Positions 12,007 to 12,067 of a DNA stretch of 64,000 bases are shown here, piece after piece. The position numbers and the translations under genes are program-made. The notes under the pieces are model-generated. The model was not told where the DNA came from and did no database searches. It saw nothing but the letters and a program-made list of their open reading frames with translations. Numbering within the stretch: position 1 is the first letter of the stretch; every line of letters begins with the position of its first letter. The DNA is from Escherichia coli (GTDB lineage: Bacteria > Pseudomonadota > Gammaproteobacteria > Enterobacterales > Enterobacteriaceae). Where the stretch lies: NCBI RefSeq assembly GCF_001677475.2, contig NZ_CP015229.1. One strand, written 5' to 3'.

Positions 12007-12049
12007 GCAGGACGACCTGCAAACGCGTCTTTTCACCGGGGACGGCCCC
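12007..12049 (+). promoter_or_regulatory. Guanidine-II riboswitch (mini-ykkC) in gdx 5' leader
   Basis: Two short GC stem-loops with ACGR tetraloops: gcagg-ACGA-cctgc (12007-12020) and cgggg-ACGG-cccc (12037-12049), just upstream of gdx start. Confidence 0.8.
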
Positions 12050-12067
12050 AATTCTCCGGAGCCTGAT

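Follow-up and report, generated by a model that had tools for sequence, protein, structure and literature searches.

The guanidine-II riboswitch in the gdx (sugE) leader of Escherichia coli and the nucleotides that may hide its ribosome-binding site

What occupies the short stretch of DNA immediately ahead of gdx (sugE) in Escherichia coli, and which of its nucleotides keep the ribosome-binding site out of reach when the exporter is not needed? We examined this locus in a 64,000-nucleotide stretch of E. coli DNA (contig NZ_CP015229.1; hereafter the window, meaning the whole stretch at its full length), in which the gene order is epmB-efp-ecnA-ecnB-gdx(sugE)-blc-ampC. An earlier reading, made from the letters of the sequence without database searches and referred to below as the original prediction, had called a guanidine-II riboswitch here. 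That call is upheld by a covariance-model match, by the SugE/Gdx equivalog encoded downstream, by the recurrence of the element at orthologous loci, by covariation in its stem and by the literature on the same sequence. We put the probability at about 0.97 that 12004-12050 constitutes the aptamer of the guanidine-II (mini-ykkC) riboswitch of E. coli, lying in the predicted ~76-nt 5' UTR of gdx/sugE and acting as a translational ON switch. The riboswitch had been described before: it belongs to a curated family, and this E. coli member has itself been the subject of structural and genetic work.

Identity, anatomy and conservation of the element

A scan with the Rfam covariance models, which the original prediction had named as its own check, clearly matched Guanidine-II (RF01068) to 12004-12050 on the forward strand, scoring 49.3 bits where the gathering threshold is 32. 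The match is full-length (model positions 1-48 of 48) and has an E-value of 9.5e-07 when the whole window is searched with all 4,227 families, and of 1.6e-08 in the local scan. No second Rfam family was recovered at E <= 1 on either strand of 11400-12500, and the scans of that interval and of the whole window detected none of the guanidine-I, -III and -IV riboswitches. The latter classes (guanidine-I being ykkC) share with guanidine-II the ligand and the regulated families, namely Gdx exporters and guanidine carboxylase, but their folds are unrelated and larger, with I and IV acting on transcription termination and III forming a pseudoknot. A riboswitch feature at the gdx leader is absent from the RefSeq annotation of both EC2641 and K-12; this absence results from annotation practice and is no evidence against the element.

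Elsewhere in the window, the sole other cis-regulatory RNA family at gathering score is the RpsF leader (RF02893; 59989-60073, forward strand, full length, 110.1 bits), an autoregulatory ribosomal-protein leader. The window also contains three tandem identical tRNA-Gly(GCC) genes (27000-27075, 27233-27308 and 27344-27419), and we take this trio at 27000-27419 to be the E. coli glyV-glyX-glyY cluster.

The guanidine-II class is defined by 16 conserved nucleotides, comprising two hairpins with ACGR loops closed by G-C pairs (PMC5558903). The gdx leader displays two such ACGR tetraloops, each closed by two conserved G-C pairs (Table 1), in the form of GG-ACGA-CC at 12010-12017 and GG-ACGG-CC at 12040-12047, the columns of which are at least 90% invariant in 28 orthologues. 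Its 14-nt linker falls within the class range of 7-40 nt, the linkers of the orthologues being 13-21 nt long and little conserved in sequence, and the placement characteristic of the class, in the 5' UTR of a gene for guanidine export or degradation, is seen in the 18 nt that separate the end of P2 from the gdx ATG. The GGAG between them, which is marked as the Shine-Dalgarno (SD) sequence in Fig. 1 of PMC13064478, is retained as a GGAG-like motif in the leaders of the orthologues.

Table 1. Coordinates of the features of the gdx leader and its surroundings, in window numbering
Feature	Position	Strand	Description	Basis
ecnB intrinsic terminator	11898-11925	+	12-bp stem, then T-rich tail	terminator-like scan
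Predicted sigma-70-like promoter	11958-11985	+	-35 TTGAAA 11958-11963, 16-nt spacer, TG-extended -10 CAAAAT 11980-11985	promoter scan
P1 hairpin	12004-12023	+	8-bp stem UUUGCAGG/CCUGCAAA, ACGA tetraloop 12012-12015	Rfam alignment
Linker L1/2	12024-12037	+	14 nt, CGCGUCUUUUCACC	Rfam alignment
P2 hairpin	12038-12049	+	GGGG/CCCC stem, ACGG tetraloop 12042-12045	Rfam alignment
Shine-Dalgarno GGAG	12058-12061	+	6 nt ahead of the start codon, 8 nt past P2	sequence
gdx (sugE) CDS	12068-12385	+	105 aa plus stop; SMR-family guanidinium/H+ antiporter	NCBIfam match

The alignment also refines the boundaries of the hairpins as they were first drawn. P1, given as gcagg-ACGA-cctgc at 12007-12020, was correct in sequence and too short, as three more A-U pairs extend its stem from 5 to 8 bp. 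P2, given as cgggg-ACGG-cccc, holds for the gggg-ACGG-cccc of 12038-12049; the leading c12037 faces A12050 and is unpaired, and P2 is therefore a 4-bp stem. The gap of 16 nt stated between the two hairpins is accurate on the narrower boundaries (12021-12036) and amounts to 14 nt once the full P1 is considered. Their location just 5' of a gene for an SMR-family exporter was likewise borne out, with the GGAG of the table followed by an ATG at 12068 that opens a 105-aa SMR protein.

This protein matches the NCBIfam SugE equivalog model NF008512 with 193.5 bits against a cut-off of 126, whereas all Qac and EmrE models score it far below their cut-offs. Likewise, a comparison with solved structures gave 115 bits for the Gdx chains in PDB (6wk5 group) versus 44 bits for EmrE, and the K-12 annotation of gdx reads 'guanidinium exporter'. 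These sequence matches place the predicted product with Gdx/SugE rather than with the EmrE/Qac drug exporters.

Using a scan for Gdx relatives restricted to one genome per species we collected 80 loci, of which 40 were searched with Rfam (L044-L083 being left out); a gathering-level Guanidine-II match was recovered in the same place at 29 of these 40 gdx orthologue loci. The first batch, consisting of Enterobacterales chromosomes and two enteric plasmid copies, yielded matches at all 20 loci (38-49 bits). Among the more distant gdx loci of the second batch 9 out of 20 were matched, including those of Yersinia, Bordetella, Bradyrhizobium, Massilia and several MAGs. The distance from the end of the match to the start codon is 12-28 nt in 28 of the 29 positive loci and 45 nt in the remaining one.

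Base pairs were then counted in 28 distinct sequences, aligned without gaps and anchored on the loops; 87.8% of the cells of this alignment are paired as against 70.3% after shuffling. The covariation score is 0.513 versus 0.173 for shuffled alignments, with none of 500 shuffles reaching the observed value and the slid-register controls not exceeding 0.173. P1 displays double-sided changes at seven of its eight pairs, with 94.6% of its cells paired. The four G-C pairs of P2 are invariant or nearly so in the 28 orthologues, which renders P2 uninformative for covariation, and what would be its fifth and sixth pairs are mostly unpaired in enteric leaders.

These data also bear on whether the locus might merely combine two chance GC hairpins that have no regulatory role. 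The GGACGRCC octamer taken by itself would allow this, as it occurs in the window at chance rate (3 copies versus 3.4 expected); the signal is carried by the covariance model and by the paired arrangement, in which two of the three octamers share a strand, are spaced by 30 nt and sit within a hairpin each. The Rfam E-value given above, the covariation of P1, the retention of the element's position ahead of gdx across Enterobacterales, Burkholderiales and Bradyrhizobium, and the published ligand binding and mutant phenotype speak against chance. On these grounds we exclude this explanation, the probability of which we consider negligible.

Within E. coli the locus is nearly universal: 801 bases around the site are present in 5,425 of 5,426 complete genomes, where they are annotated as ecnB-sugE-blc. 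The sugE/gdx riboswitch of E. coli K-12 is the same element, with P1, P2, the loops, the SD and the start codon identical base for base, and K-12 further shares the genomic context and the predicted promoter with the window. Across 11893-12075, two positions set the window apart from K-12 MG1655, namely 11932 in the tail of the ecnB terminator and 12027 in the linker. The second of these is a natural linker polymorphism, G in the window and C in K-12. The G12027 allele is frequent in nature: of 5,421 E. coli genomes with a match, 1,121 reach 99% identity or more to the window across 11990-12075 (the G allele), with O157:H7 and O55:H7 being 100% identical, and ~4,300 genomes fall in the 95-99% band over the same interval, like K-12 with its C.

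The E. coli aptamer has been studied directly. A 49-nt construct comprising P1 (23 nt), the native 13-nt linker and P2 (13 nt) binds guanidinium (Gdm+) with a KD of 130 uM as determined by NMR, upon which two new G-C pairs form; the ligand binds strongly to the ACGA loop of P1 and weakly to the ACGG loop of P2, and NMR also revealed intermolecular P1-P1' dimers in vitro (PMC9300104). A 47-mer, which has the length of the Rfam match, enters a ligand-dependent kissing state by smFRET, and for the P1 dimer of E. coli the same work cites a crystal structure, PDB 5NDI (PMC9094411). Given the weak P2 loop and the P1-P1' dimers, kissing between P1 and P2 in cis in vivo is still partly inferred. On the genetic side, the caesium-resistant mutant ZX-1 carries a deletion of 20 bp ahead of gdx, and its gdx expression is constitutive according to RNA-seq (n=1 for each condition); adding Gdm+ is also reported to strengthen the Cs+ resistance that depends on Gdx (PMC13064478). 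Guanidinium binding and response have thus been reported for the K-12 sequence, both hairpins of which are identical here (PMC9300104, PMC13064478). We located the ZX-1 deletion by its reverse complement, which occurs once in the window, at 12036-12055, and takes in all of P2 and six bases beyond. In-line probing has reportedly been carried out by Sherlock et al. in 2017, and Higgins et al. are said to have described riboswitch mutations linked to ionic-liquid tolerance in 2019.

The upstream gap and the question of transcriptional control

The original prediction had further invoked the riboswitch to explain a long 5' leader, and this part needs correction: the 175 nt between ecnB and gdx hold the ecnB terminator, a conserved promoter-like site and a predicted leader that spans just ~76 nt. 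The terminator, a strong one, begins 6 nt past the ecnB stop (ecnB 11746-11892) and delimits the gdx unit on its upstream side, outside the switch. The promoter-like site sits 19 nt upstream of P1, and its -35 TTG and -10 A..AAT are in register in 12 enteric lineages, the mean column identity of the region being 52%. From the position of this predicted promoter, transcription of gdx would start near 11992, giving a leader of ~76 nt.

Directly upstream lies the ecnA/ecnB entericidin pair (11510-11892), which encodes an antitoxin and a toxin lipoprotein. A review suggests that the 'suppressor of groEL' phenotype from which sugE received its name may stem from ecnB on the original clone (PMC12186494). 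A mechanically called ORF of 155 aa with a GTG start (11918-12385) runs in frame across the promoter and the riboswitch into gdx. It owes its length to the lack of an in-frame stop, and we regard it as an artefact, the annotated gene beginning at the ATG of 12068.

The terminator scan additionally flags 12004-12023 plus CGCGTCTTTT (to 12033), that is P1 together with the adjoining part of the linker. Accordingly, P1 and the U-rich linker might be read as an intrinsic terminator or attenuator through which gdx is controlled partly or wholly at the level of transcription, and the increase of gdx mRNA in the ZX-1 mutant (RNA-seq, PMC13064478) could be taken to point the same way. However, the T-run is only 4 long and starts 6 nt past the P1 stem, and a ligand that stabilises P1 would turn such a device into an OFF switch, contrary to the biology. 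Moreover, the ZX-1 deletion spares both P1 and the U-run, yet the mRNA rises, a rise that is expected secondarily from translation-coupled protection. A U-rich linker is common to many enteric orthologues, but linkers outside the enterics are not U-rich, and the guanidine-II class is described as translational (PMC5558903 among other sources). In light of the short, displaced T-run and the wrong sign of the response we reject P1 as a terminator; this reading appears highly improbable to us, and the scan match is probably incidental.

The partner of the ribosome-binding site

In the published model the leader is a translational ON switch, in which Gdm+-driven kissing of P1 and P2 exposes the SD (PMC9300104, PMC9094411, PMC5558903). 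The dimerisation of loops that frees the ribosome-binding site, as stated in the original prediction, corresponds to this model and is a proposed step for the present leader. Applied to the window, each ACGR tetraloop, closed by its two G-C pairs, would bind one guanidinium ion, and the bound ligand would promote a P1-P2 loop-loop ('kissing') complex through the C and G of the loops. Kissing would lock P2 as a hairpin, the strands of which would no longer pair with the GGAG and the start-codon region 8-25 nt downstream; 30S subunits could then bind and the guanidinium exporter would be made.

To which nucleotides the SD is paired when the ligand is absent was approached by folding the leader. 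In the predicted minimum free energy (MFE) structure of the ligand-free 11995-12085 segment P1 is kept and P2 is replaced by an alternative helix, in which G12039-C12043 pair with G12070-U12074, i.e. the G of the start codon and the next codon, with further pairs between G12044-C12046 and G12061-C12063 and between C12048-C12049 and G12058-G12059. The same rearrangement is predicted for most leaders of the Escherichia, Citrobacter and Enterobacter types. In a longer construct P2 has a probability of 0.34-0.49 as against 0.4-0.5 for the alternative pairs at the SD, making the two nearly isoenergetic; in a single long construct that extends from the predicted transcription start to +44, the predicted partner of the SD lies within the coding sequence instead, and wild type and deletion no longer differ.

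As the folding depends on where the construct begins and ends, 30 pairings of 5' and 3' termini were scanned. Enforcing P1 and P2 lowers the modelled cost of opening 12056-12070 in all 30 constructs, from a mean of 7.15 to one of 5.75 kcal/mol, a modest effect (~1.4 kcal/mol) that varies in size with the construct ends and is computed with tertiary contacts lying outside the model. The corresponding opening costs are 5.28 kcal/mol for a ZX-1-like deletion and 5.81 kcal/mol for one like that of the natural E. coli strain 167 (see below). Enforcing both hairpins itself costs ~2 kcal/mol, an amount that ligand-dependent kissing could plausibly supply. These whole-stretch opening energies replaced a per-base measure, the mean unpaired probability over -13..+3, which in 30 leaders gave no useful difference between the free state (0.46) and that with P1 and P2 enforced (0.50). 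In sign, the modelled folding agrees with an ON switch and with the derepression caused by deletion of P2 despite the retention of linker and SD.

A different partner has been proposed in the literature, where the linker serves as the anti-SD (PMC9300104, PMC9094411 and, for Pseudomonas aeruginosa, PMC5558903). Under this proposal L1/2 would pair with the GGAG in the absence of ligand and be separated from it by P1-P2 kissing, the strands of P2 being uninvolved. In the K-12 linker there is indeed a CUCU (12027-12030) able to pair with GGAG through the use of one G-U; it is the sole linker stretch that could serve as the published anti-SD. It is in this very stretch that the polymorphic position 12027 falls: the G of the window cuts the complement to 3 nt, and the 1,121 natural genomes counted above share the sequence of 11990-12075 with the window at 99% identity or better. 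Pairs between linker and SD have a predicted probability of at most 0.004 with either the G or the C allele. Furthermore, gdx is derepressed in ZX-1 though its deletion retains the entire linker and the SD, and in Bradyrhizobium-type leaders it is the loop and 3' strand of P2 that show a 9-nt complementarity to the SD region. We regard the linker as the less likely partner, although one with published backing.

We tentatively favor P2 itself as the switching hairpin, for which the folding models and the evidence just cited would offer support about twice as good as for the linker. In the OFF state that we envisage, P2 would contribute its 5' strand together with its loop (G12039-C12046) to a helix with the region of the SD and start codon (G12058-C12063, G12070-U12074), such that loss of P2 would derepress gdx, with a corollary for natural lesions of the leader that is taken up below. 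Taken with all of these specifics, including the corollary, this configuration is a candidate that we hold at somewhat less than even odds. The P. aeruginosa guanidine-II RNA, of which a P2 crystal structure is known (Reiss & Strobel 2017, PMC5558903), shares with the E. coli element the two ACGR hairpins, the SugE-like gene and the translational ON-switch model. It differs in having identical loops, as opposed to the ACGA and ACGG of E. coli, and in the pairing proposed for its SD, in which the linker and the start of P1 on its 5' side take part, whereas the folding models for the E. coli leader favor the 5' strand of P2.

Broken copies in nature and on plasmids

Natural leaders with lesions of the switch are found both on the chromosome and on plasmids. 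The clinical urine isolate E. coli strain 167 (NZ_CM132950.1; L084:515-552) displays a natural 29-nt deletion corresponding to 12025-12053 of the window. It removes the linker and P2 and fuses P1 to CUCCGGAG-AUG, leaving an Rfam score of 20.6 bits, below gathering. This deletion resembles the laboratory deletion of ZX-1 that was reported to make gdx constitutive. Among the 5,421 genomes with a match, six align to less than 80% of the leader query.

The intact plasmid counterpart is the Citrobacter-type sugE riboswitch on blaCMY-2 plasmids, which has identical P1 and P2, the ACGA and ACGG loops and the gene order sugE-blc-ampC, and is recovered by Rfam with 47.2 bits. It differs from the element in the window by a linker that is 1 nt shorter and by CUGGAG in place of CCGGAG, the overall identity of the leaders being ~77%. 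On the IncC blaCMY-2 plasmid NZ_CP031362.1 of Salmonella Heidelberg (L085:1190-1255), the Citrobacter-derived sugE cassette begins inside P1. Of P1 it keeps the final base of the loop and the 3' strand (acctgcaaa), and it also keeps P2, the SD and sugE, but it has lost the native promoter, the 5' strand of P1 and most of the P1 loop; no Rfam match was found in this leader at E <= 1. Such P1-truncated blaCMY-2 cassettes occur on at least this one plasmid, with two further matches listed. These sugE copies presumably differ in how they are regulated.

Guanidine-II is among the best-characterised small riboswitches, and the copy in the window is the structurally studied one of E. coli. The value of the present check lies in showing that the call made from raw sequence was correct and its coordinates usable; as a discovery it carries little weight. 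What interest remains is narrow and concerns which nucleotides hide the ribosome-binding site and the existence of broken natural copies. Should the P2-based OFF state proposed here be true, natural lesions of the leader would give rise to Gdx variants, constitutive or non-inducible, that circulate in the field and might affect tolerance to guanidinium-type biocides. Broken riboswitches, both natural and plasmid-borne, may alter the expression of an exporter that is linked to biocide tolerance.
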